Virus record (IMG/VR): IMGVR_UViG_3300045988_139610
Reading direction: 5' to 3' (one strand)
Source: a virus
Length of the DNA stretch: 64,000 nucleotides
Under the pieces are notes generated by a model. That model was not told the DNA's origin and made no database searches. It worked only from the letters and a program-made list of their open reading frames with translations. Positions 2,867 through 15,612 of this stretch are shown here, piece after piece (the first letter of the stretch is position 1; each line of letters starts with the position of its first letter). Position numbers and translations under genes: made by a program.

Positions 2867-4129
2867 ATGGGTATTGAAATAATAGGAAAACTAACTCAAA
2901 AGAATAATGGTGACTTTAAATTAGTTGATTTAGAGAATGTTGACTACGATGGCACTGGCAAAAGCGCCAAACAAGAACTAGAGAAGAAAATAGAAGATGC
3001 TAAAAATAGTTCAACACCTTATGACGATTCTGTAATAAAAGCTGATATTCAAACATTAAAAGATAATAAAATAACTTTAGTTAAAGACGAGACATCTATG
3101 GAAGGTGTAAAAGACAATGAGTATGATACACTAACTACACAGGATAAAACATTGATAGGTAGTATAAATGAAATAAATGCACAATATAAAGATATTACGA
3201 ACAACCAACCAACTGATTTGTCATTAGATAGTGCTACTAATTTACTTCAACTTGTAAATTCAAAGGGTAGTAAATTAGGCAACGGAATAACACTTCCTAT
3301 ATCAAGTGGTGGGGGTACAAGTCAGTATTTACATATAAAATATTCAAGTACAGGAGCGCCACAGTTAGCAGGACAAATATCAGATATACCAAACGCATAT
3401 ATAGGCTTATGTGTAGATACAAATGCAGATTCTCCAACAAATCCAAAAAATTACACTTGGTATAATTGGAAAGGAGACAATGGAGATACTGGTGCAACTC
3501 CAAATTTACAAATAGGAACAGTAACTACACTTGAGAGTGGAAGTAATGCAACTGCATCAATTACTGGAACAACTGAAAATCCAGTATTGAATTTAGGTAT
3601 TCCAAAAGGAGACAAGGGAGATACTGAGACATGGGAAAAAGTTATTGAAACAACTTTTGGAGAAGAATGTTATGCTTTTACTGTAACAAAAGATAAAGAT
3701 GAAAATTCATTAAACTTAAAAGAAGGTTTTGTTTTTGTAACAGTTAGTCAACCTAAAAATACATCATCAAATCAAACTTTTGCAATAGGATTCCAAGATT
3801 GGGTATCAAGTTTCAACTCAAAGGCAAGCATACATAATATAAATTTGTTTAAAAATTATGAATTTTATAGATATGGATTTTATTTTAGAGTAATTAATAA
3901 TTATTTATTTTGTCAATCAATTGCTAAATGCAGGGTAGGAGTAGGTACTCCAAAATTTAATAATTTTTCTGCATCTACTCCAAATACAGCTGATTATTGT
4001 TCAATTGCAACTTTTAGAATTTTACAAAATAATTTAACATATGTTGATAAAATTACCGTAGGATTAGATATATCAACAACGGGTTTATTTTCAGCAGATT
4101 CTATTATGGAGGTGTGGGCTAAATGTTAG
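2867..4129 (+). CDS. Tail fibre protein with short collagen-like G-x-x runs
   Basis: Motif QDKTLIGSINEINAQ; GDNGDTGATP and GIPKGDKGDT triplet repeats; sits in the fibre cassette. Confidence 0.5.
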   Translation: MGIEIIGKLTQKNNGDFKLVDLENVDYDGTGKSAKQELEKKIEDAKNSSTPYDDSVIKADIQTLKDNKITLVKDETSMEGVKDNEYDTLTTQDKTLIGSINEINAQYKDITNNQPTDLSLDSATNLLQLVNSKGSKLGNGITLPISSGGGTSQYLHIKYSSTGAPQLAGQISDIPNAYIGLCVDTNADSPTNPKNYTWYNWKGDNGDTGATPNLQIGTVTTLESGSNATASITGTTENPVLNLGIPKGDKGDTETWEKVIETTFGEECYAFTVTKDKDENSLNLKEGFVFVTVSQPKNTSSNQTFAIGFQDWVSSFNSKASIHNINLFKNYEFYRYGFYFRVINNYLFCQSIAKCRVGVGTPKFNNFSASTPNTADYCSIATFRILQNNLTYVDKITVGLDISTTGLFSADSIMEVWAKC

Positions 4130-4275
4130 TTAAAAGAGTTATAGATGGAAAAGTTATAGAAACAGAATTGACACAAGAAGAAATTGACGCTCAAAAAAAA
4201 CAAAATAAACCAGAAGAAATAACAATAGAAGAAAGAGTTAGTGCAATCGAAGAAGTTATTTTAAATTTATTGTAA
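4123..4275 (+). CDS. Small fibre-associated protein (occupies the XkdW-like position)
   Basis: 50-codon ORF missing from the track. Its ATG overlaps the fibre gene stop. Translation MLVKRVIDGKVIETELTQEEIDAQKKQNKPEEITIEERVSAIEEVILNLL. Lies directly upstream of the XkdX gene. Confidence 0.4.
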   Translation: MLVKRVIDGKVIETELTQEEIDAQKKQNKPEEITIEERVSAIEEVILNLL

Positions 4276-4287
4276 GGAGGTAAAATT

Positions 4288-4416
4288 ATGTACAACTTTT
4301 TATTAAATATGTGGATTATGAAAAAAGTAAATGAAGAATATTTACAAAAGAGAGTTTCAAAAGGACAAATAACTCAAGATGAATATGAAATGATAATTGC
4401 TACACCTCAAATATAA
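4288..4416 (+). CDS. xkdX: XkdX-family small phage protein
   Basis: 42-codon ORF behind AAGGAGG. MYNFLLNMWIMKKVNEEYLQKRVSKGQITQDEYEMIIATPQI fits the XkdX pattern (W...V..G.IT.EEY..I). Confidence 0.55.
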   Translation: MYNFLLNMWIMKKVNEEYLQKRVSKGQITQDEYEMIIATPQI

Positions 4417-4467
4417 ATATAGAAAAATACACCCCCTTTTATTATAATGATAAAAGGGGGTGTATAT

Positions 4468-4992
4468 ATGGGAAATAGTGAAATTAGCTTATTAAGTAAG
4501 TATCGAACTCAATTAATGGGTTTAGCTATGCTATTAATATTCCATACAGGTATTAATGTTAAAAGTGTAAATGTTATAAGGAGTATAAAAGATATTGGAG
4601 ATATGGGTGTAGATATATTTTTATTGTTATCAGGTATAGGTCTATATTTTTGCTATTATTAGTTTAATAATTAGTTTACTAATTGTAAATCCAAATATTA
4701 TGTTTATATTCCACTATCTTTAAGTATCTGTTTATTAGCAACAAAGTTACTAGATAAATTTAGCGATGGTAAATTTAAAATATTAACATTTTTAGGTATA
4801 TATAGTTTAGAAATATACTTATTTCATGAAAAAATATTATGGATTTTATCATTTTCAGAAAGAATAAAAGTTATAGATAAATACCATATAGTATTAAATA
4901 TTATTGCATATTTAGTAGCTATGGTAGTAGCATATTTATGGAGTAATATTGTATCAAAAACTATATCAAGAAAACAAACTATTACAGGCTAG
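4468..4992 (+). pseudogene. Decayed acyltransferase-3 (OatA-like) gene
   Basis: The N-terminal piece (YRTQLMGLAMLLI...GVDIFLLLSG) stops at 4662. A C-terminal piece in another frame (LTFLGIYSLEIYLFHEKI...) runs to 4992. Together about 170 aa, versus the ~350 aa typical of the family. Confidence 0.5.
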
Positions 4993-5022
4993 ATTGATTT
5001 CTAGTCTTTTTTAATACGCATT

Positions 5023-5049
5023 TAGTTCGCAATTTAAAAAGATTGCGTA
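5023..5049 (+). repeat. 27-nt direct repeat, copy 2 (TAGTTCGCAATTTAAAAAGATTGCGTA)
   Basis: Matches 1448-1474 at 26 of 27 positions. Confidence 0.8.
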
Positions 5050-5133
5050 TATAAATTTAAAATAAACACATAATATAAACGTACACAAAACCAGCTGTGT
5101 ATTAACTCTAATTACTATTTGTATAATGTGTGG

Positions 5134-5170
5134 AAATAGGAGAGGATTAATTCTTCTCCTATTTTGTTTT
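5134..5170 (+). terminator. Rho-independent terminator
   Basis: AAATAGGAGA-ggattaatt-TCTCCTATTT followed by TGTTTTT. Confidence 0.6.
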
Positions 5171-5234
5171 TATAAAAAGATAAATGAAGAGAGGAAAAAT
5201 ATTAAAATAATTAATAAAGAAGGGAGATTAAGAA

Positions 5235-5699
5235 ATGAAATTAAGTGATTTAACATTAGATATGATTAGAAGTTCATATGATGTGGAAGTAAATAACGAA
5301 ATAGAAACTGTTTTAGTTTATAATATATTTGGTGAGAATAGAAATGAATTAAAAGAAAAAATATCTAAAGGACTAGAACAAGGATTAGAAGAAAAAGCAT
5401 TAATGGAACTTATATATAAAAAGGCGTTTGAATTAGCTACGGATTTAGAATTAGACGAAGATTTAATAGAATCAATAAATAAAGGTAAAAAAGAATTAAT
5501 GTTTATTGCACAAGATGTAGATGAAATAGTAAGTGAAATTGTTATAGAAGTTATGTTAGAAAAACAAAATCTATTAGCAAATATGACTTCATTAACTTTA
5601 AGCAAAAGAATATTATTAGAGGCTGAAAAATTAGAAATATTAAATAAACAATGTGAAAAATTGGAAGAGGAAATACAAGAAATGAAAAAAGGTGATTAA
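5235..5699 (+). CDS. Candidate tail assembly chaperone
   Basis: Acidic 154-aa ORF with RBS GAAGGGAG, immediately upstream of the tape-measure gene. Call is by position only. Confidence 0.35.
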   Translation: MKLSDLTLDMIRSSYDVEVNNEIETVLVYNIFGENRNELKEKISKGLEQGLEEKALMELIYKKAFELATDLELDEDLIESINKGKKELMFIAQDVDEIVSEIVIEVMLEKQNLLANMTSLTLSKRILLEAEKLEILNKQCEKLEEEIQEMKKGD

Positions 5700-6135
5700 T
5701 TTGGTTGTAAATGATATTGAAAGTGCAGTCAATTATATTAAATCCGTTGTTTCTACTGCCATGACACCTATGGCAAATAAAATGGTAGAGATAATGCAAC
5801 GAGAAGTAAATGAACAAATATATGCTGACCATGAACCATCTGTATATGAACGTACAGGGCAAATGGGAGAAATAGCACAAATATCAAGTATTGATATGAA
5901 TTGTGCTGTAGTAGAATTCCAAGATAATGGGGATTGGACAAGTGTATCAACGGGAGAACATTTCTTTCCTATTATAGGTTGGGAAGCAGGTAAAGTTTGG
6001 AGTTTTAAAAGTGATAATGTAGTTGCTTATTATCCTCCAACAACTATTATACCAGATTCGCAAGTTAAAATAGCTCAACAAATACCAACTGAATTGAAAC
6101 GATATTTAATAGAGCAAGGTTTAGATGTTATATAG
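5692..6135 (+). CDS. Hypothetical protein upstream of the TMP (second chaperone-position gene)
   Basis: ORF overlaps the end of 5235-5699 in the +1 frame. It may start at TTG 5701, behind AAGGTGAT. Confidence 0.35.
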   Translation: MINLVVNDIESAVNYIKSVVSTAMTPMANKMVEIMQREVNEQIYADHEPSVYERTGQMGEIAQISSIDMNCAVVEFQDNGDWTSVSTGEHFFPIIGWEAGKVWSFKSDNVVAYYPPTTIIPDSQVKIAQQIPTELKRYLIEQGLDVI

Positions 6136-6156: not shown

Positions 6157-8358
6157 ATGGCAGATTTAACTATTAGATTAAAAACTTCTGTAGACGGAAG
6201 TGGAGCAGAACAAGAAGTTACAAAACTGAAAGAGAAATTAGAAAAAAAAGAAGTTAATCTAAAATTTGATACGACAAAAATGAAATCTCAAATGGAGGAA
6301 CTTCAAAAAGTATTAAATAATGCTTTTAAACTTAAAGACGACCAATTAAACAATCTTAAACAGATACAGAATACTTTGAAAGAAATAAATTCTTTAAGTA
6401 AAGACGTACAAAAAAATTTATTTGGCAGTGGTTCTACTAAAACTTCTACTGGTAATAAAGAATTAGATAATACTATAGCTAAATATAAAGTTTTACAAAA
6501 ACAATCAGAATCACTCCAAAAACAAATGTCTAAAACTATAAATACTCAAGCTTATAACGAATTAGAAACTAAATTATCAAAAATTAACAGTGAGATGCAA
6601 TCTACTGCACAAAAAATGGACAACTTAAAAAATAAATCTAATATAGATATAAGTAGAGATTTAATAAGTTCATTTGATAAAATTCAACAAAAGGCTAATA
6701 ACACCTCTGAACAAATTAATAATATGTTCAAAAATAAAAACTTAACAAGCTCACAGGTGGGACAACTCCAAGAACTTCAAAATAAAATCAATGATATTAA
6801 AGTTGCTGATTTAAGTAAAATATTAAAATCCGATGAAGCATATGAGAAGATACATAATTTAAATGCAGAGATTAGCAATGTTTCAGTATCGTTAAAAGGA
6901 TTAAACGGCTCAATTACATTCACTGATAAGGTAAATACATCTGTCGCTAAGTTAGAATCTCTTAAAGCTAAACTTGCTGAATTAGGAACGAGTAAATTTG
7001 CTAATACATCTGGAATACAAGAGCTAATAACTCAAATAGAACAATATCAATCAAAACTGCGAAATATAGACCCTAATACAGAAGGTGCTAAAGCTGAATT
7101 TGATGGTTTAAAAAATAAAATATCGGAATGTGAAAATAAATATAAACAATTTGAGAGTGAAATTTCTACTAAAAGAGCTAATGTAAAATTTGATGCAGAT
7201 TTTAATAAAGTATCTCAAGATTTAGCAAACTTAACAAGAAGATGTCAAGAATTAGGAGCTTCATCATCTAAGGTAGAAGAATTTAAACAAAGACTACAAA
7301 CTATAGCTAGTATAAGTAATTTAAAAGATAGGGATGCAGAGTTAAAAGCGTTAACTAAAGATGTGAGTACTTTTTCTAGTAGTCTATCTAATATTAACGG
7401 AAATGGTATAAATGGTGTCGCTAATGGAGCTAGAAGTGCAACTCAAGCAATGAATATATTAGGAAATGCAACCAAGAAAACGTCTGGATTTTTCAGTAAT
7501 TTAGCCTCTATGTTATCAATGTATTCAATACCAAATATGATTGGTAGACTTATCACTCAAGGTATATCTTCAATTCCTAGTACTATTATTGATACAGATA
7601 CGGCTATTAAAAAATTATTAAAAGTTGCACCAGACACCTTTACAGGAACAGCCAAGCAATTAGATTGGTTAACTCAAAAAGCAAGTGAGGCAGGTCAAGA
7701 GGTTGCCAGAAGTAGTATTGATATAATTGATTCCACTGCCGAGGCATTACAATCTGGTTTCCATAATGTCAGCAAAGCTTTACAATATGCTAAAAATGCA
7801 TCTATGTTTGCCAACGTTATAGATACAAGCCAAGCAGATGCAGATAAATACTTGAAATCAACATTAGCATCTTATGGTGGTGTTGCAAACTCATTAGATA
7901 AAGTTACAATGAAAGTCAAAGGTAACACCAAAGAAACTACCAAAATGATGCAAATGATGGATATGGTCAACTATGCAAACAACAACTATGCTGTTACAGG
8001 TAAAGACGTATCTGAAGCAATGATGCGTTCATCTTCTGTTGCGAAAACATTAGGTGTTAGTATGCAAGAGTTGGTTGCTATTATAATTGCAGGGCAAGAA
8101 CCATTACAAAATGCAAGTAAATTAGGTAATGGTTTAAAAACAATCATGCAAAACATGGCAGGTTGGAAAACAAGTGCCAAAGACGGTAGCATTTCAATGA
8201 ATAAAACAGCAATGGCTATAGAAAAAATAACTGGAATTGATATGCACGATTCAAATGGTCAAGTTAGAGATTTCTATGACATCATGGGCGATATAGCAGG
8301 AATGTGGGATAAATTAGATAAAAAAAGTAAATCTTCTGTAGCTGAAGCGATTGCAGGT
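6157..8358 (+). CDS. Tape measure protein, exon 1
   Basis: Coiled-coil N-terminus followed by a TP901-type TMP core (..LTQKASEAGQEVA..NNYAVTGKDVSEAMMRSSSVAKTLGVSMQELVAIIIAG..). The frame stops 2 codons after AEAIAG. Confidence 0.75.
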
Positions 8359-9526
8359 ATATAAATTAATAGTTTAAAAGGTTTAAAAATAATTAATAAA
8401 GGAAAGAATAAAAAAAGGGGGGTGAATATTATGATGGAGGAAACTTTAGAAAAATATAATTTGGGTTTAAAAATGTATTTAGAAGGAGTATCTACAGCTA
8501 GAATCAGTAAAGAATTAAAAATTTCAAGAAGTAGATTTTCTTCTTATTTAAAAAACCAAGGTATAAAAGTTAATATTATGCCACATAAAAAGAAGATAAA
8601 CGATGATATATTTGAGAAAATAGACTCTGAAGAAAAAGCTTATTGGTTAGGATTTTTATATGCCGATGGAAGTATTTCAAGTGGTAAAAGAAATGATATA
8701 GAACTTTCTTTACAATTATCAGATAAAGAGCATCTTCAAAAATTCAAAGATTTTATAGGGTTTGAGGGAAAATTAATTGTAGATGATTTTAGATGTAGAG
8801 CATCTTTTAAAAATAAAAAAATGAAGCAAGATTTAATTAAATTAGGATGTACTCCTAGAAAATCATTGACATTAACTTTTCCAACAGAAGAACAAGTTCC
8901 TAAAGAATTAACACCTCATTTTATAAGAGGGTATTTAGATGGAGATGGTTGTATTGTTTGTACTAAAAAACATCAAAGTATAGAAATATTAGGAACTAAA
9001 AATATCCTAGAAGGTATATGTTTGAATACAAATATCCCATTGGGGAGAATTTACAAAACGAATTGTAAATCTAATGATATCTTTAGATTAGTAACTAATA
9101 AAAAAGAAGATGTATTAACTTTTTGTGATTATATTTATAAAAATTCAAATATATATTTGGAAAGAAAATTTAAAAAATATAAACTATTAATTAAATATTA
9201 TGCCACTCATGGTAGAAATATCATGTAGATTAGAGGGGTGTATCGGTCAACTAAATCAAAAGATTAAGGTGGTAAGAGAGCCTAAGTCCTTAACGGATAT
9301 GGTAATACCGAGGGTGTCTTAACAGAGAACATCCGTAACGCATAGTAGGTGAACGATATTGTTAGTAATAATCCTACCACGAGCCTCCTCCACAACATTA
9401 TACAGTAATGTTTGAGATGGATTTGCAACCATCAATACCTAACGTTAAACGAGGGTGAAAATGTATGCTAGGCTTATAGGAAACTATAAGAGGTAGAGGA
9501 TAAAAAGCCTTTACGATAATAAACCG
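8359..9526 (+). mobile_element. Group I intron 1 carrying a LAGLIDADG homing endonuclease gene (boundaries approximate)
   Basis: Interrupts the TMP core. Contains the HEG plus a ~300-nt GC-richer, hairpin-dense 3' segment (9229-9526). U8358 and G9526 fit the splice-site rules and keep the reading frame. Confidence 0.6.
8431..9228 (+). CDS. LAGLIDADG homing endonuclease (double motif)
   Basis: Motifs YWLGFLYADGSIS and FIRGYLDGDGCIV. N-terminal HTH-like GVSTARISKELKISRS. RBS GGGGGGTGA precedes ATG 8431. Confidence 0.85.
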   Translation: MMEETLEKYNLGLKMYLEGVSTARISKELKISRSRFSSYLKNQGIKVNIMPHKKKINDDIFEKIDSEEKAYWLGFLYADGSISSGKRNDIELSLQLSDKEHLQKFKDFIGFEGKLIVDDFRCRASFKNKKMKQDLIKLGCTPRKSLTLTFPTEEQVPKELTPHFIRGYLDGDGCIVCTKKHQSIEILGTKNILEGICLNTNIPLGRIYKTNCKSNDIFRLVTNKKEDVLTFCDYIYKNSNIYLERKFKKYKLLIKYYATHGRNIM

Positions 9527-10516
9527 AAAAACCAGTTGAACGTTTTCACAGCAATAATGAGTAACTGGAGTCAAGCAGAAAAATTCTTAAAAGAATACGA
9601 AAATGGCGACACTTTCGGAAGTTCAATGAAAGAAAATGCGAGATATATAGACTCTGTACAAGGGAAACTTACATTATTGCAAGAAAAATGGAGAAGTATA
9701 ATTAATACTGCCATAAGTGGTAATACGGCAAAACAATTTTTAGATATTGGTATAACTGTATTAGATATAATAGATAAGATTATTAAAAAATTAGACGATG
9801 CAGGAGTAGCACTTCCCGTAATAGCAGGTGCAATTTCTGGTCTTTTTCAATCATTAAAATTTAATCGAAGCGGTGGATTTGAAGCATTAATTAATCAAGA
9901 AAGAAGATTAAAAGCCGAAGCTTTAAGTACAACTACTGCACTAGAAGGACAAGCCACTGCAACACGACAAGCATCTAGTGCTACAATGATTGGAACTACT
10001 AATCCAGGATTCTTTGCAACAATAAGAGAAGGATTTCAAGCTAGTTATCTTGGAAAAACTATAAATGTAATGAGAGGAATAGGCACTTCGTTTAAAGAGG
10101 CTCGTCAATCATCTGGGGTATTTGCCTCTGGATTAACAGCAGTTAGAAGTGCTTTAACAGGTGTAGAGGCTAAAGCATTAGGAACAAAAGTAGCTTTAGG
10201 AGCTATGAATTTAGCTATGACTGCTGTAAATATGGGTGTAGGTATGCTTATATCGTGGGGAATAGGTAAAGTTATCCAACATTTTACAGACGAGGCTAAT
10301 AGACTTAATGACGCTTTAGAAAAAAATGCAGAAAATATAACTAATTTGAACAATAAAGTAACTAGCTCAACAAAAGCAAAAACAAATCTTTCAAATATTA
10401 GAGACGAATATAAAAAATTATATGATACGGTAGATAAAACTTCTGAACAGCAAGAAAGATTTAAAGAGTTACAACAACAAATAATTGATATTTGTGGTGA
10501 AGATATTGTCTTGGGT
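9527..10516 (+). CDS. Tape measure protein, exon 2
   Basis: No ATG or RBS. The frame reads KNQLNVFTAIMSNW..., continuing the TMP core. Gly/Ala-rich hydrophobic middle; stops just after GEDIVLG. Confidence 0.7.
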
Positions 10517-10865
10517 TAATAAATAGCCCCTATAATAAGAAATTATTATTAGAAAACATATTGAATTGCTGGAAAACCCTTAGAGCCTTAATACCACAAC
10601 GTAATTAGTAATGATAAGCGTGATGGTTTTAAAAAGTTTAAGGATTGGGCAATCAGCAGGTAAGAATTATTTTATTAATTTTTTAAAAGAAATAAATAAA
10701 AATAATTAATAAAATAATTAAACTTCAACGACTATCTCGAAAGAGAGTACACTTAAGTGAGTGGAAGTGGTATGTGCCTAGTAACAGGTAAAGATATAGT
10801 CTCAACGTCTAGTGAAAACTAGAGAAGTTCATAAGAGAACTGCATAAGATTAACGACCTTATGTG
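10517..10865 (+). ncRNA. Group I intron 2 (ORF-less, 349 nt)
   Basis: Core elements recognisable: P-like AAUUGCUGGAAAACCC (10564-10579), Q-like AAUCAGCAGG (10651-10660), R-like UUCAACGACUAUC (10724-10736), S-like AAGAUAUAGUCU (10791-10802). Exon GGGU can pair with GCCC (10526-10529), placing a U-G wobble at the splice site. G10865 would be omega-G. Confidence 0.8.
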
Positions 10866-13800
10866 AAGATATTGTATGATAAAGATAATAACCCGATTTT
10901 ATCAATGGGTGGAGATATTGATAAATTAATTGCAAAATATGATAAATTAATCAAGAAACAGCAAGAGGCTCTAAATCAAGAATATAAAGACCAACAAAGA
11001 AACGCTACAGACAAAATGAATGAAGGACAAGGATTTGCTGGTAAAGATGGGGCTTTCAATAAACAAGCAATTAAGGAATATAATAGACAAATAGAAAACA
11101 TCAGAAAAAAGAAAAGTGAACTTAACAATACATTTACTCAAACAGGTGATTCAGCATGGCTAGAAGATTATTCAGAAAGGCTTGCTAAATTAAGTGATAC
11201 TTACGCTAGTGCTAAAGAGGCAGTTGTAGATGCCGAAGCAAAAATAAGTGCCGAATCTCAAAAAATAAATAAAAGTATAGTAAACTCTTTGTCTATAGGT
11301 GATGGTTTTAGTAAATTAAAAAGTGACGTTCAATCTGAAATGATAGAAGTTGTAAATGGATTAGATTTTTCTCAATTAACAAGTGGACAACAAAGTTTAT
11401 TTGAATCAAATATGAAGAAAATGTTTGATTCTGGAACAATAGATAAGTCAATAAGAAAATTGTATGATTTGCAACAAGCATATGCAGATACAAGTGACAT
11501 TACTGCTTATGAACAAGGAATTGAAAAATTAATCCCTTCTTTAGCTAAATTATGGGGAGTAAATGAAGATGTAGCTAGAAGTATGGTGGAATTACCAGAA
11601 AGTGCTAAAATGGCTCAAAATGCTATGGATGCTTATTTACGTTCTTTTGGTAAAAACATAAACATGACAGATAAAGAAACTAAAGATTTGATGGCAACAT
11701 GGGACGCTTACAATAATTTTCTTCAAGATTTAAGTGGTCTTGATACAGTAGAAAAAGACGGAAAAATGGTTTATAATATCAAAGAAGTTAAAGCCACTTT
11801 AGAAGATAGTAATTTACCAGACAAAGTAAAAGACTTGGTTAATAAATTAATGGGTGACGGTGAATTTTCTTTAGACGATATGGAATTAACAGCTAAATTA
11901 TCTCAAATTTATGTAGAAGACGATGAAGAAACTAGAAATAATTTAATTCAAGACGTTCAAAATCTTGTAGATAAACAATTTGGAAAAGGTAAAATAGACG
12001 TAGGTAAACTGTTTGTTACAGGGGAATATGCTGTATCTGATGACGATAAAAAGAAAATAGATGACGCTTTTGCAAGTTTTAAACAATTTGACGGAAAAGA
12101 TGAAATAGTAAAAACTTTAAGAGCGAATATAGAAAATACCGACCAAGTTGAAAATTATGCTAAATTAATGGATAATTTAAGAGGTAAAGATAAAGACATT
12201 GAAACATTTTTTAAAAATAACATTCAAGATTTATCTGAATTAGAATCTTATGAAGACATGATTCAATGGGTATTTGACCACCCAGAAGCAGTAACAAAAT
12301 GTCACATAAATGTTTTAGGTGAAGATACAATAAAAACTGCTAAAGCTGAAATAGATAGTCTATTAAATGAAAAAGATGAAAAAGACATAAAAGTAAAAAT
12401 AGATAAAGCTTTAGCTCAAGGTGACATAGCAACCGTAATGGACTTAATAGGGCAATTACCAGCAGAAAAACAAATTGAAGTTGGAGTAGCATTATCTAAC
12501 GCATTAGATGAACTTGGAACTGTAGATGCTATACAATTAAAAAATAAAGTTGTAGATGTTACCGTAATGGCTTTTCAAGCATTACAGCAACTTTATGCAC
12601 TTCAAGGATTAAAAATTCCAGAGAAATATATTAAAATAATTAGTAATAGTGCTGATGTAGCAAATAAATTAGATAGTTTGAAACAACAAATAAACGAAAT
12701 ACCACGAAGTATATCAATAATGGCTACTTTAACCTATACAGAAAAAGGTAAATCAAAAGTCCCCCATAGTGGAAAGGGAAAATCAGTAATGTGGGGAGAT
12801 TCTATAGGTGAATTTTCTAATATAGAAGATAATCCTTATTCTGTAGAGCAGTTGAGTGCTACACCAATGGTGACTTCACAACCTGTAGTAACTGCAAATG
12901 ATGTAAACACAACAACTCCTACTTCAGATAGTTCTGGTGGAATAAGTACTTATGCTACAAGAGATTTTAATAGCATAGGTGATATAGAAACAGCTTTAAC
13001 TCCTATAAACCTTGAATATCAAAATGTATTAGATATGATTGAGTACTCCGTTGAATTATTTAAAGAATTACAATATAGAATTGAAACAGTAACTAAGAAA
13101 ACTTCATTATTAGATAAACAAATGGAAAAAGCAGTAGGTACTGAAAAAATTAAATATCTTAAACAAAAAAATAAATTATTAGAAGAACAGGCTAAACTTC
13201 AAAAAGAATATTATGACGATTTAATTTCTGAAAGAGAAACACTTCAACAAAAACTTCAAAAAGAAGGATTCAAATTTAATGAAGATGGGAATATGACTAA
13301 CTATGAAGAAAAATTATTGGCTATGCAAAAAGAATATAAACGACTTCAAGATGTAGCCGATAAATCTTCTAAAAGTAGCTCTTCTAGTGGTTCTTCAAAT
13401 AATACAGCAAGCGATAAAGCTAGTAAATATAAAGAAGAATTGGATAAACTTACAAACTTAGCTAATAAATATTATGATATACAACAAAGTGATATATTTA
13501 GTTGTGAAGAACAATGGCAAGAAATGAAAAATACAATTAAAGAAAATAATGACGAAATTGAAAAACTAACTAGAGAAGATAAATTGTATAAATTTAGCAA
13601 CGCCATAACTCAATTAAAAAATCAATTCGATATACTAGGAAATAAAATTGATATAATAGATGTTAAACTAGAAAATTCAAATGGAGTAGATACAATTAAA
13701 TTGACAGAAGAAAAATTAAAACTTATGAATGAACAACTATCTAAACAAATGGATTTAATGACTAATATGAAAAATAAGATTCCTACATATCAAGAAAGTT

Positions 13801-14828
13801 TATCTAAATATGGTTTCACATTTGATGTAGAAGGAAATGTAAGTAATATAGACGAAGTATTAAACAGTTTTCAAAACAGTGAAGATTTGGAAAAAGTTAA
13901 TGATTTATTAGAAGAATATACTTCTTTAATAAATGACGATTTAGCCGACGCAGAAAAAAATTATGCTGATTTACAAAAAAACATAGTAGATTTACAAAAA
14001 GATAAACTTAATAAAGTGAAAGACATAGAAGATAAAATCACAGATGTAATAAAAGATGAAATAGATAAACGTAAAGACGCTATAGAAAAACAATATGACA
14101 AAGAAAAAGAATTAATAGAAAAAAGAAGAGATGATTATAAAAAACAACGTGATGAAGATGATTATGCAAAAAATTTAAAAGAACAACAAGACGAAATTGA
14201 CACTATTAATAAAAAAATAGAATTAGCAAAACGAGATAATTCTATGAGTGGTAAATCTAAGTTGAAAGAATTATTAGACGATTTAAAAGAAGCTCAAGAT
14301 AAATTAGATGAAACAGTTCAAAATAAGGTTGATGAAGACATCGATAATATGTTCCAAGAACAATTAGACGCTTTAGATAAAAAGAAAGAAGATATGACAC
14401 AAAATATAGATGACACTTATACTCCACAAAAAATAGCACAAATGGTTAAAGATGCGATGATGACTAATACTTTTACTGATTTAAATGGTAATATTACCAA
14501 TTTACAAGATAAATTGATTGACTTTGCAGAAACAAGTGGAGACGCAGTAGGAATATTAGGTGATTCAATTAAAACAGAATTGTGTGATAATCTTGAAGTA
14601 GCTTTGGATTATTTAAAAGACTATAAAGATATATTTAAAGAACTTGGATTCAAACAATTAGGAAATGTAAATTATAAAGAAGGTATGAATAAAGATACAA
14701 CTTCTAAAACATTAAATGTGGGTGATATCAATATTAATGTTGAAGGAAGTGTTGATGAAAATGTTCTTGATGACATGCAAGAAATGATTAATAAAACTTT
14801 AAAAGATATTGTTAATAAATCATTATAG
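10866..14828 (+). CDS. Tape measure protein, exon 3
   Basis: 1320 in-frame codons with no RBS upstream. Long coiled-coil, K/E/D-rich sequence. Confidence 0.7.
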   Translation, partial: KILYDKDNNPILSMGGDIDKLIAKYDKLIKKQQEALNQEYKDQQRNATDKMNEGQGFAGKDGAFNKQAIKEYNRQIENIRKKKSELNNTFTQTGDSAWLEDYSERLAKLSDTYASAKEAVVDAEAKISAESQKINKSIVNSLSIGDGFSKLKSDVQSEMIEVVNGLDFSQLTSGQQSLFESNMKKMFDSGTIDKSIRKLYDLQQAYADTSDITAYEQGIEKLIPSLAKLWGVNEDVARSMVELPESAKMAQNAMDAYLRSFGKNINMTDKETKDLMATWDAYNNFLQDLSGLDTVEKDGKMVYNIKEVKATLEDSNLPDKVKDLVNKLMGDGEFSLDDMELTAKLSQIYVEDDEETRNNLIQDVQNLVDKQFGKGKIDVGKLFVTGEYAVSDDDKKKIDDAFASFKQFDGKDEIVKTLRANIENTDQVENYAKLMDNLRGKDKDIETFFKNNIQDLSELESYEDMIQWVFDHPEAVTKCHINVLGEDTIKTAKAEIDSLLNEKDEKDIKVKIDKALAQGDIATVMDLIGQLPAEKQIEVGVALSNALDELGTVDAIQLKNKVVDVTVMAFQALQQLYALQGLKIPEKYIKIISNSADVANKLDSLKQQINEIPRSISIMATLTYTEKGKSKVPHSGKGKSVMWGDSIGEFSNIEDNPYSVEQLSATPMVTSQPVVTANDVNTTTPTSDSSGGISTYATRDFNSIGDIETALTPINLEYQNVLDMIEYSVELFKELQYRIETVTKKTSLLDKQMEKAVGTEKIKYLKQKNKLLEEQAKLQKEYYDDLISERETLQQKLQKEGFKFNEDGNMTNYEEKLLAMQKEYKRLQDVADKSSKSSSSSGSSNNTASDKASKYKEELDKLTNLANKYYDIQQSDIFSCEEQWQEMKNTIKENNDEIEKLTREDKLYKFSNAITQLKNQFDILGNKIDIIDVKLENSNGVDTIKLTEEKLKLMNEQLSKQMDLMTNMKNKIPTYQESLSKYGFTFDVEGNVSNIDEVLNSFQNSEDLEKVNDLLEEYTSLINDDLADAEKNYADLQKNIVDLQKDKLNKVKDIEDKITDVIKDEIDKRKDAIEKQYDKEKELIEKRRDDYKKQRDEDDYAKNLKEQQDEIDTINKKIELAKRDNSMSGKSKLKELLDDLKEAQDKLDETVQNKVDEDIDNMFQEQLDALDKKKEDMTQNIDDTYTPQKIAQMVKDAMMTNTFTDLNGNITNLQDKLIDFAETSGDAVGILGDSIKTELCDNLEVALDYLKDYKDIFKELGFKQLGNVNYKEGMNKDTTSKTLNVGDININVEGSVDENVLDDMQEMINKTLKDIVNKSL

Positions 14829-14871: not shown

Positions 14872-15612
14872 TTGTTTAAAAGTCAATATTTTATTTGGAA
14901 AGGAAAACAATCTAAAGATAAATTTTTAAGTATATTAACCACTGATAATGATGTTCTAAATGATTTTGGAGTTCCATATAATAAAACATTAGAAAAAGAA
15001 GATAATTTAGATTTATATAATGAAAAAGAAGAAGAACCCGAAGATATAATATTGCAATTATATTTAGAAAAAGACGGAATGCCTTTAATATGGACTGGTG
15101 AAAATTTTAGAGAAATTAAAAAATGGTTAGTAAGTGATGACTTTGAAGAATTTATTTCTTATGACAATTTAGATTATGTGTATTATTTAAAATGTACGAA
15201 AATACAAAAAAAATTTACATACGGTGAACCTAAAGGTTGTATAGAAGTTACATTTAAACCTTTAAGTCAATATGCATATAAAAAAGTAATTATAGAAAAA
15301 GAAGTAAAAGGTAAAGAATTAATAGATATACATAATAGTGGAGACTTAAATTATGAACCTATAATTGTAATTGAAAGTAATTGTAAAAGAAATCAAAAAG
15401 TAAAAGTAAACGATTTTATAATAAATAATTTACTTGAAGAGGAAACTATTAAAATAGATAATAAAATGTGTTTAGTTAAATCCAATAAACGATATTATCC
15501 TATATCAGATTGTAATAGAAAATGGATTACTTTAAAACAAGGAGATAATCAATTAATCGTTGAAGGAGAATGTAATATAATTATTTATTGTAGTTTCCCA
15601 GAAGTAATATAG
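14872..15612 (+). CDS. Distal tail protein (Dit) candidate
   Basis: 246-aa ORF directly after the TMP and abutting the Tal gene. RBS AAGGAGGGTGA with a TTG start. Call is by position. Confidence 0.55.
   Translation: MFKSQYFIWKGKQSKDKFLSILTTDNDVLNDFGVPYNKTLEKEDNLDLYNEKEEEPEDIILQLYLEKDGMPLIWTGENFREIKKWLVSDDFEEFISYDNLDYVYYLKCTKIQKKFTYGEPKGCIEVTFKPLSQYAYKKVIIEKEVKGKELIDIHNSGDLNYEPIIVIESNCKRNQKVKVNDFIINNLLEEETIKIDNKMCLVKSNKRYYPISDCNRKWITLKQGDNQLIVEGECNIIIYCSFPEVI

Follow-up and report, generated by a model that had tools for sequence, protein, structure and literature searches.

A predicted tape-measure gene in three exons, and the putative group I introns that separate them, in a phage of gut Clostridia

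Three collinear reading frames and their junctions

The window analysed here is a stretch of 64,000 nucleotides (nt) of viral DNA, IMG/VR virus record IMGVR_UViG_3300045988_139610, and this report concerns the gene for its tape-measure protein (TMP). Three open reading frames (ORFs) lie at the locus, all on the plus strand: 6157-8364, 9536-10519 (where the open frame starts at 9527) and 10863-14828. They are separated by two gaps, the first of which holds a further ORF of 265 amino acids (aa). In the reading that we consider very probable, a single TMP gene of 2381 codons is interrupted by two mobile group I introns, called intron A (first gap) and intron C (second gap) below. The source appears to be a large siphophage that infects gut Clostridia and is related to phiCD211; by TMP, the nearest isolated phages are the phiCD211-like phages of C. 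difficile, of ~131 kilobases (kb), at 27-30% identity. A megablast of the locus against isolated phages returned short matches to the intron cores alone, and no close relative.

The first ORF ends in ..SSVAEAIAG-I-stop, with its stop codon at 8362-8364, and the second ends in ..GEDIVLG-stop. Neither a Shine-Dalgarno sequence nor an ATG was seen ahead of the two downstream pieces, exons 2 and 3; Shine-Dalgarno sequences are present for exon 1, for the inner ORF of the first gap and for the gene that follows the TMP. A first-pass annotation of this DNA had described the same three ORFs, with the same coordinates and C-terminal ends, and had pointed out that the frame open from 9527 (KNQLNVF..) has no ATG or ribosome-binding site and that the third piece likewise lacks a ribosome-binding site, all of which holds.

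Profile matches run through all three pieces. The match to PF10145 (80.3 bits against a cut-off of 33.2; 2.3e-22) ends at the last residue of exon 1. Exon 1 alone covers positions 6-239 of the 349 in TIGR01760, with 54 bits; the spliced protein covers 6-346, with 77.3 bits (cut-off 28.8). On the 2625-position TMP profile phrog_4211, exon 1 occupies 570-839, exon 2 840-1102 and exon 3 1984-2477, and since the alignment passes from 839 to 840 across junction 1, that junction sits between adjacent profile positions. Exon 3 matches phrog_10871 at 1.7e-150, and eight TMP PHROGs in all match the window TMP. The protein is of the TP901 type by profile score above the cut-off, by its large size, and by its place in the gene order, after the tail chaperone genes and before the distal tail protein (a Dit-like gene starts downstream at 14872). 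By these alignments the three ORFs are collinear parts of one TP901-type TMP, with the first break inside the TP901-type core, as the first-pass annotation had proposed. The mature protein would comprise 734 + 330 + 1317 = 2381 aa, with a mass of ~265 kDa.

The presence of introns varies among relatives, and the exon junctions can therefore be defined without relying on any RNA model. The relatives' DNA marks three intron sites in the TMP gene: A at 8358/9527, B at 9635/9636, and C after 10516. The window has an intron with an ORF at A, an empty site B, and an intron at C. Contig L003 (94% nt identity) has introns at A (337 nt, without an ORF), B and C. Contig L001 has an intron without an ORF at A, an intron with a 377-aa ORF at B, and an empty site C. 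Contig L110 begins within intron B (with a 378-aa ORF), so that site A falls outside it, and its site C is empty; contig L109 has an empty site A and an intron at B, and ends before C. The ORF-less 337-nt version at site A occurs in L020 and L039 as well as in L003, and L063 carries the ORF. Thus the endonuclease gene within intron A, described below, is variably present at this site among relatives, as are the introns themselves.

The intron at site B spans ~11644-12069 in L003, 4451-6013 in L001 and ~1-1738 in L110, and runs from ~2440 in L109. Its 3' part is ~75% identical to intron C. The ORF in L001 and L110 gives a weak match to DUF723 and faint matches to CapR and DUF4379. The 5' exon at site B ends ..AAAGAG(AA), without a U for the usual U-G pair at the splice site.

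At junction 1, intron-less L109 reads ..GGTGAGGCTGTAGCTGGT/AAACAAAAT.. (the slash marks the junction), that is, ..GEAVAG/KQNINTFNAIM.., where the window has ..AEAIAG/KNQLNVFTAIM..; intron-less DNA of the L109 type over the whole site is ..GAGGCTGTAGCTGGTAAACAAAATATA.. The homologous protein P0011 (768 aa, 60% identical) is uninterrupted over this junction, and more distant TMPs cross it too. The junction 8358/9527 and the gap length of 1168 nt given in the first-pass annotation are exact, as L109 reads straight through.

At junction 2, the first-pass annotation had joined 10516 to 10866, so that exon 3 began with KIL, the gap measured 349 nt and the TMP had about 2384 codons. This would place the end of intron C at G10865, as sole or alternative site, and yield a protein of 2384 aa with ..DIVLG-KIL-YDK... 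Such an end is not without merit: the base is a G, it follows a conserved UUAUGUG, and the frame is kept. However, L110 reads ..GAAGATATTGTCTTGGCT/TATGATAAAAAT.. across its empty site C, and all four intron-less homologs read ..V(L/A)(A/G)/YD(K/E)NNNPIL, with KIL absent, so that the three extra residues occur in 0 of 4; P0001 (78%) and P0003-P0010 (~59%) are uninterrupted over the junction. Moreover, the 3' end of the intron C family is conserved through ..YUAUGUGAA plus ~7 nt ending in G, and diverges beyond. For example, L126 and L137 carry an identical intron C tail, GUGAAGAUAUUG, followed by unrelated exons, and related introns in unrelated sites, such as these two, conserve at their 3' ends the 9 nt that follow G10865, AAGAUAUUG. 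From the intron-less homologs together with the conserved tail, it follows that 10866-10874 is intron, that the terminal G is G10874, and that exon 3 starts at 10875. The P10 helix agrees, for UAU at 10875-10877 pairs with AUA at 10523-10525, and AAG at 10866 is unpaired. We therefore consider an end at G10865 improbable, and place junction 1 at 8358/9527 and junction 2 at 10516/10875 from comparison with these homologs. Gap 2 is thus corrected to 358 nt and the protein to 2381 aa.

The predicted spliced DNA is ..GCGATTGCAGGT/AAAAACCAGTTG.. at junction A and ..ATTGTCTTGGGT/TATGATAAAGAT.. at junction C; use of G10865 would instead give ..TTGGGT/AAGATATTG.. in place of ..TTGGGT/TATGAT... The junction peptide DIVLGKILYDK of the first-pass annotation is replaced by the predicted DIVLGYDKDNNP, also given as IIDICGEDIVLGYDK, and the predicted tryptic junction peptides are SSVAEAIAGK and ELQQQIIDICGEDIVLGYDK.

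An exact 13-nt direct repeat, GTGAAGATATTGT, is found at 10497-10509 and 10863-10875. The first copy lies in exon 2, 7 nt ahead of the 5' splice site; the second comprises the tail of intron C and the first base of exon 3. Since the tail is a feature of the intron family, the resemblance of the exon 2 copy to it may be due to chance. This repeat is what misled the earlier choice of 3' junction.

Structure of the two intervening sequences

In a scan of positions 8200-11000, the Rfam model RF00028 (Intron_gpI) matched intron C over its full length (model 1-253, at 10507-10824) with 64.9 bits against a gathering score of 50 (E 1.5e-15), and the L003 ortholog of intron C scored 84.1 bits. P1 is formed by GGGU/UA (10513-10518) with UAGCCC (10524-10529), such that U10516 pairs with G10526; this U-G pair and the P10 pairing together fit the 10516/10875 junction. 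The core elements R and S are canonical (UUCAACGACUA and AAGAUAUAGUC), the folding z-score is -4.87, and the core is 95% identical over 42 nt to introns in the DNA polymerase genes of T7-like phages. On these grounds we classify intron C as a group I intron. A 20-mer from its P9 region, GTTCATAAGAGAACTGCATA, occurs on more than 119 IMG/VR viral contigs with ~90 different 3' flanks among the matches listed (L112-L229), several of which hold two or three copies, and by this count the intron C lineage has spread very widely among large phages.

Scans of the whole 64-kb window with Rfam, in both gathering and E-value modes, found nothing, intron C included, which was detected only in the short sub-range (2.8 kb), at 15 bits over the gathering score. 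The miss is presumably due to speed filters, and scans of the whole window are therefore no evidence that group I introns are absent. A search of the window for further copies of either intron type, by nhmmer profile and core motifs, found none.

Intron A gave no significant match in Rfam, and its structure was therefore derived by comparative analysis, for which we aligned 33 non-redundant members of its family (alignment A1). The helices are listed in Table 1. The model comprising P6, P7, P7.1, P8, P9, P9.1 and P9.0 has 89.7% of its cells paired, where slid controls reach 31-55%; both partners vary in 20 pairs, and none of 500 shuffles attained its covariation score. P7 is 100% paired, with nine AU-to-GC exchanges and one CG-to-AU exchange. 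P7.1, which lies between P7 and the 3' strand of P3, is 98.8% paired, and five of its five pairs covary. P8 is 81% paired, P9 and P9.1 are invariant hairpins, and the outer part of P6 covaries. P9.0, in which J7/9 pairs with the two bases before the terminal G, covaries as well (GG/CC, AA/UU, AC/GU, AG/CU, AU/AU).

The 5' strands of P3 and P4 were sought with a script that looks, upstream in each member, for a 5-mer able to pair with that member's P3 3' strand and, 2-8 nt beyond it, a 4-mer complementary to P4'. P3, J3/4 and P4 were recovered in 24 of the 33 members, where the complementary P3 sequences take at least 12 different forms (CGAGC/GCUCG, AAACC/GGUUU, CGUUC/GAACG, UGAAC/GUUCA and others), and the 5' half nearly always reads N5-AAAA-UCGG-UGAAGGCUAA. 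It lies 28-70 nt upstream in ORF-less members and 0.5-1.1 kb upstream where an endonuclease gene occupies the P5 loop. We read this recovered pairing as two group I features, the P3/P7 pseudoknot and the P4-P6 domain.

Close relatives also change in step. In ORF-less relatives, P1 is GGU/AAAA with UUUUGCC, which is compensatory with respect to the window, and P2 in L001 is CAUAAUA/UGUUAUG, again compensatory, with a tetraloop receptor there of UCUAAG..UAUGA. The P2 hairpin of the window is contained in the minimum free energy fold, two GAAA loops are present in the intron, and G9526 lies immediately 5' of exon 2 as set by L109. The stretches GUAAC-GCAUAG (J6/7-P7) and AAAAUG-UAUGC (J8/7-P7') parallel the classical R and S elements. 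Subgroup IA, as Michel and Westhof are said to have defined it in 1990, is marked by one or more additional helices (P7.1/P7.2) inserted between P7 and the P3 3' strand. One covarying hairpin, P7.1 at 9345-9377, stands at exactly that position in intron A.

Several observations weigh against the reading of the locus as a gene with two group I introns, most of them concerning intron A. RF00028 gave no match at E<=10 on intron A, either in 8200-11000 or in 9180-9560, and even the ORF-less L003 ortholog reached just 12.4 bits (E 7.3). The folding z-score of the core, -2.06, is modest. P1 pairs only three exon bases and must close over a translated loop of 840 nt, and splicing of intron A could be inefficient for these reasons; P10 is weak in the window version. 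For intron C, G10865 is also in frame and a G, and is thus a possible minor alternative 3' site. Considering the covariation, the junction and the homology to an intron of phage phiCP13O (below), we nonetheless conclude that intron A is a predicted group I intron, IA-like in design and divergent in the sequence of its core, and that the Rfam miss is a false negative. Both gaps had been proposed as group I introns in the first-pass annotation; this is upheld, although of the expected Intron_gpI matches only that to the second gap materialised. The Rfam model has been reported to be incomplete for phage introns, giving such false negatives (PMC11878797). Since intron A goes unseen by Rfam and intron C was missed at 64 kb, routine screens under-count phage introns.

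Across alignment A1, J6/7 varies with the base after the 3' strand of P7: a U there goes with AAC, and a C with AGA (9 of 9 AGA cases; 9337-9339 and 9469 in the window). This covariation is non-Watson-Crick and independent of the AU/GC exchange within P7; it may reflect either a tertiary contact or an extension of P7 by non-canonical pairing.

The ORF within intron A gives a match to the Pfam family LAGLIDADG_3 (33.7 bits against a cut-off of 22.5) and to the endonuclease profile phrog_4645 (3.5e-60), and by these matches its product is a predicted LAGLIDADG homing endonuclease within a putative self-splicing element. The ORF occupies the P1 loop (8362-9198), and its final codons run into the internal guide sequence and P2. 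The claim that both gaps are GC-rich and non-coding therefore stands only in part. The 298-nt core at 9229-9526 has a guanine-plus-cytosine (GC) content of 38.9%, against 27.1% for the window and 28-33% for the exons, but gap 1 as a whole (27.8%) holds the 265-aa ORF, and the GC content of intron C is 29.1%.

Could the insertions remain in the RNA? In that case three polypeptides would assemble into the TMP, and a free-standing endonuclease gene would lie between the first two pieces. Genes split through the insertion of an endonuclease gene are known in phages, namely the nrdA genes of T4-like phages and of Aeh1; gene callers do annotate the pieces separately, both in relatives and in phiCP13O, and possible start codons exist (GTG at 10863, TTG at 9536). 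Yet no Shine-Dalgarno sequence precedes either start, the breaks fall within a conserved domain where relatives are continuous, and both gaps contain complete group I ribozyme folds with P1 and the terminal G exactly at the frame breaks. In addition, the ORF-less insertions of 337 nt and 358 nt would have no reason to be conserved unless they were ribozymes. We regard separate polypeptides as very improbable.

Nor is it at all likely that the locus is a decaying pseudogene in a defective prophage, its insertions the dead remnants of introns that no longer splice. In favour of such decay, no endonuclease gene is present in intron C or in the ORF-less versions of intron A, which fits a late stage of the homing cycle, and P1 of intron A is short. 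The three exons are nevertheless intact over all 2381 codons and the late gene block of the window is whole and undamaged, the same arrangement is kept at 94-96% nt identity on independent metagenomic contigs, and the helices stay paired through compensatory changes between close relatives.

Two other kinds of intervening element were considered and rejected. An intein is excluded by the stop codons at 8362 and 10517 and by insertion lengths (337 nt for the ORF-less intron A, 358 nt for intron C) that are not multiples of 3. Group II introns are excluded by the lack of a match to RF00029 or other group II models, by 5' ends of AUAUAA and UAAUAA where GUGYG would be expected, by cores of ~300 nt, which are too short, and by the absence of a reverse-transcriptase domain.

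Table 1. Predicted exons, introns and structural elements of the tape-measure locus, in window coordinates (a slash within a sequence marks a splice site; x marks pairing)
Feature	Coordinates	Strand	Description
TMP exon 1	6157-8358	+	734 codons; ends ..AEAIAG, final base U8358; junction fixed by intron-less homolog L109
Putative intron A	8359-9526	+	1168 nt; IA-like group I; endonuclease ORF in P1 loop; in-frame stop 8362-8364
Intron A P1 5' strand	8356-8361	+	GGU/AUA; pairs with UAUGCC 9199-9204; U8358 x G9202 is the splice-site wobble
Predicted LAGLIDADG homing-endonuclease gene	8431-9228	+	265 aa; motifs LGFLYADGS and IRGYLDGDG; G-rich Shine-Dalgarno 8417-8424
Intron A internal guide sequence and P2	9199-9225	+	UAUGCC 9199-9204; hairpin CAUGGUA-GAAA-UAUCAUG 9208-9225
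Intron A core	9234-9389	+	P3 AGGGG 9234-9238 x CUCCU 9385-9389; P4 UCGGU 9243-9247 x ACCGA 9307-9311
Intron A 11-nt GAAA-tetraloop receptor	9281-9286 / 9298-9302	+	CCUAAG / UAUGG; P5 region
Intron A P6	9312-9334
Intron A J6/7	9335-9339		GUAAC
Intron A P7 5' strand	9340-9344		GCAUA
Intron A P7.1	9345-9377
Intron A 3' half	9392-9526	+	branched P8 9392-9457; J8/7 AAAAUG 9458-9463; P7 3' strand UAUGC 9464-9468
Intron A P9.0			G9471-G9472 x C9524-C9525
Intron A P9	9473-9490		CUUAUAG-GAAA-CUAUAAG
Intron A P9.1	9493-9514
Intron A terminal G	9526
TMP exon 2	9527-10516	+	330 codons; starts KNQLNVF; phrog_4211 840-1102; holds empty site B at 9635/9636
Putative intron C	10517-10874	+	358 nt; no ORF; canonical group I; TAA stop at 10517-10519; terminal G 10874
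TMP exon 3	10875-14828	+	1317 codons and stop; starts YDKDNNPIL; aligns with P0001 and P0004

Directly upstream of the TMP gene, two overlapping ORFs (5235-5699, 154 aa; 5692-6135, 147 aa) occupy the usual place of tail assembly chaperones with a programmed frameshift, and a weak match to YomN was obtained with the second ORF's counterpart in relatives. Further upstream, after a 420-aa ORF at 2867-4129, positions 4130-5234 (1.1 kb, GC content 23.6%) contain only small ORFs, of 50, 42 and 71 aa. This interval was considered as a third interrupted gene and rejected: the L003 homolog (580 aa) matches just the first 99 residues of the ORF at 2867-4129, with the gap itself unmatched. Its appearance is that of a variable region, not of an intron.

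Proposed splicing and the intron A family

The very probable reading, in which the two introns splice themselves out of one TMP transcript, implies the following sequence of events. The late transcript would be made as a precursor, in which each intron RNA would fold into a group I ribozyme. Free guanosine would attack after U8358 and after U10516, each of which is held in a U-G wobble with the internal guide sequence, and the released exon ends would then attack after the terminal G9526 and G10874. Ligation to ..GCAGGU/AAAAAC.. and ..UUGGGU/UAUGAU.. would restore ..AEAIAG/KNQLNVF.. and ..EDIVLG/YDKDNNP... The stop codons right after both 5' splice sites probably serve to bar ribosomes from the ribozymes. 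By analogy with other homing systems, the LAGLIDADG enzyme would cut intron-less TMP alleles of co-infecting phages, whereupon repair would copy the intron in. Splicing, the self-splicing capacity of the RNAs and endonuclease activity are thus all predictions from the sequence.

Intron A also has many relatives elsewhere. A 31-nt motif from its 3' part occurs in 104 IMG/VR stretches (L005-L108) with 34 different 3' flanks, which implies many insertion sites, ~30 or more, for the family, and by BLAST the 3' module of intron A is present in 67 phage isolates, from Staphylococcus, Bacillus, Clostridium and Clostridioides. Whereas the window has its endonuclease ORF in the P1 loop, the majority of the family carry theirs, of 0.5-1.1 kb, in the P5 loop, flanked by the two P4 strands. 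In the Clostridioides phage CD1801 (L004, 65-6111), a member of the family separates a 300-aa coding sequence annotated as 'portal protein' from the next coding sequence, and the record carries no intron annotation.

It is possible, at somewhat less than an even chance in our judgement, that intron A represents an IA-like lineage of group I introns which is widespread among Firmicutes phages and so far uncatalogued. Such a lineage may be defined by the P7 pair GCAUA/UAUGC and a nearly invariant P9-P9.1 tail, and may go unseen by the standard Rfam model; its members may carry endonuclease genes in the P1 or the P5 loop and occupy ~30 or more sites in structural genes (TMP, portal). In that event, many phage genes whose annotation currently reads 'split' or 'truncated' would in fact contain introns, and would be recoverable with a dedicated model.

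For the annotation of the window, a single TMP of 2381 aa should replace the three ORFs, and the 265-aa ORF should be labelled as a predicted intron-encoded LAGLIDADG endonuclease. Estimates of tail length based on the fragments, and likewise gene-sharing networks, would be wrong. The relatives display the gain and loss of introns and endonuclease genes within a single late gene, with three sites that are each empty, ORF-less or ORF-bearing. The value of the finding lies in the correct annotation and in a widespread lineage of phage introns that appears to escape the standard Rfam model.

Comparison with known systems

The first-pass annotation held a doubly interrupted tape measure to be unusual. 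This does not survive the literature: a TMP gene with two introns was reported in 2008 (PMC2504315), and a TMP locus with two intronic homing-endonuclease genes in 2023 (PMC10448857). Since TMP genes with more than one group I intron are on record, the present case is no surprise.

Among phage introns at large, intron C shares its canonical R and S core with RF00028 and the IA2-type introns of phages (T4 td, SPO1, and the DNA polymerase genes of T7-like phages). Intron A, in contrast, scores below every Rfam threshold, and departs from RF00028 in its P7 (GCAUA/UAUGC) and in the divergent sequence of P3-P6.

A close counterpart of intron A is found in the Clostridium perfringens phage phiCP13O (L111, NC_019506), where a member of the family separates gp23 from gp24, both of them coding sequences annotated as 'tail length tape measure protein'. 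This intron is 81% identical to intron A over P7'-P9-P9.1 and the 3' tail, ends exactly at the start of gp24, and is collinear with intron A, having the same J3/4-P4', J6/7, P3', P9, P9.1 and tail, along with an internal ORF of 268 aa. It differs in occupying another site of the TMP gene (..NGIKG/..EGGTALRN..) and in having a canonical P7, GACUA/UAGUC; its GenBank record is without intron annotation. RF00028 matches it with 33.7 bits (E 1.6e-6), which is below the gathering score and thus supportive rather than formal.

In Vibrio phage ICP1, splicing of the TMP transcript was established by RNA-seq and reverse transcription PCR, the TMP gene was called a frequently interrupted one (Barth et al., NAR Genom Bioinform 2023; PMC10448857), and one isolate carries two intronic endonuclease genes in its TMP locus (PMC10448857). 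The window resembles ICP1 in that a TMP gene is fragmented by an endonuclease-carrying intron. The host of ICP1, however, is Gram-negative, its endonucleases are of the HNH type and its splicing is experimental, whereas the window encodes a predicted LAGLIDADG enzyme and its splicing is inferred.

Finally, Tourasse and Kolsto (NAR 2008; PMC2504315) described IA1 and IA2 introns, TMP-IVS1, -IVS2 and -IVS3, at three TMP sites in prophages of the B. cereus group, including two introns in one gene (phage E33L), adaptation to the site through P1, and the loss of endonuclease genes. The introns of the window and its relatives are like these in lying within a TMP gene as predicted group I introns (IA-like in the case of intron A), two of them in one gene, in the changes of P1 among related introns, in occupying three sites, in varying in presence and absence among relatives, and in occurring in endonuclease-bearing and endonuclease-free versions (PMC2504315). 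They are unlike them in that the window appears to belong to a phage of gut Clostridia related to phiCD211 and has its LAGLIDADG gene in the P1 loop. Similarity between the window TMP and Bacillus phages was not detectable at the DNA level by megablast. The pattern of gain and loss matches what has been described for the Bacillus prophages and for ICP1.

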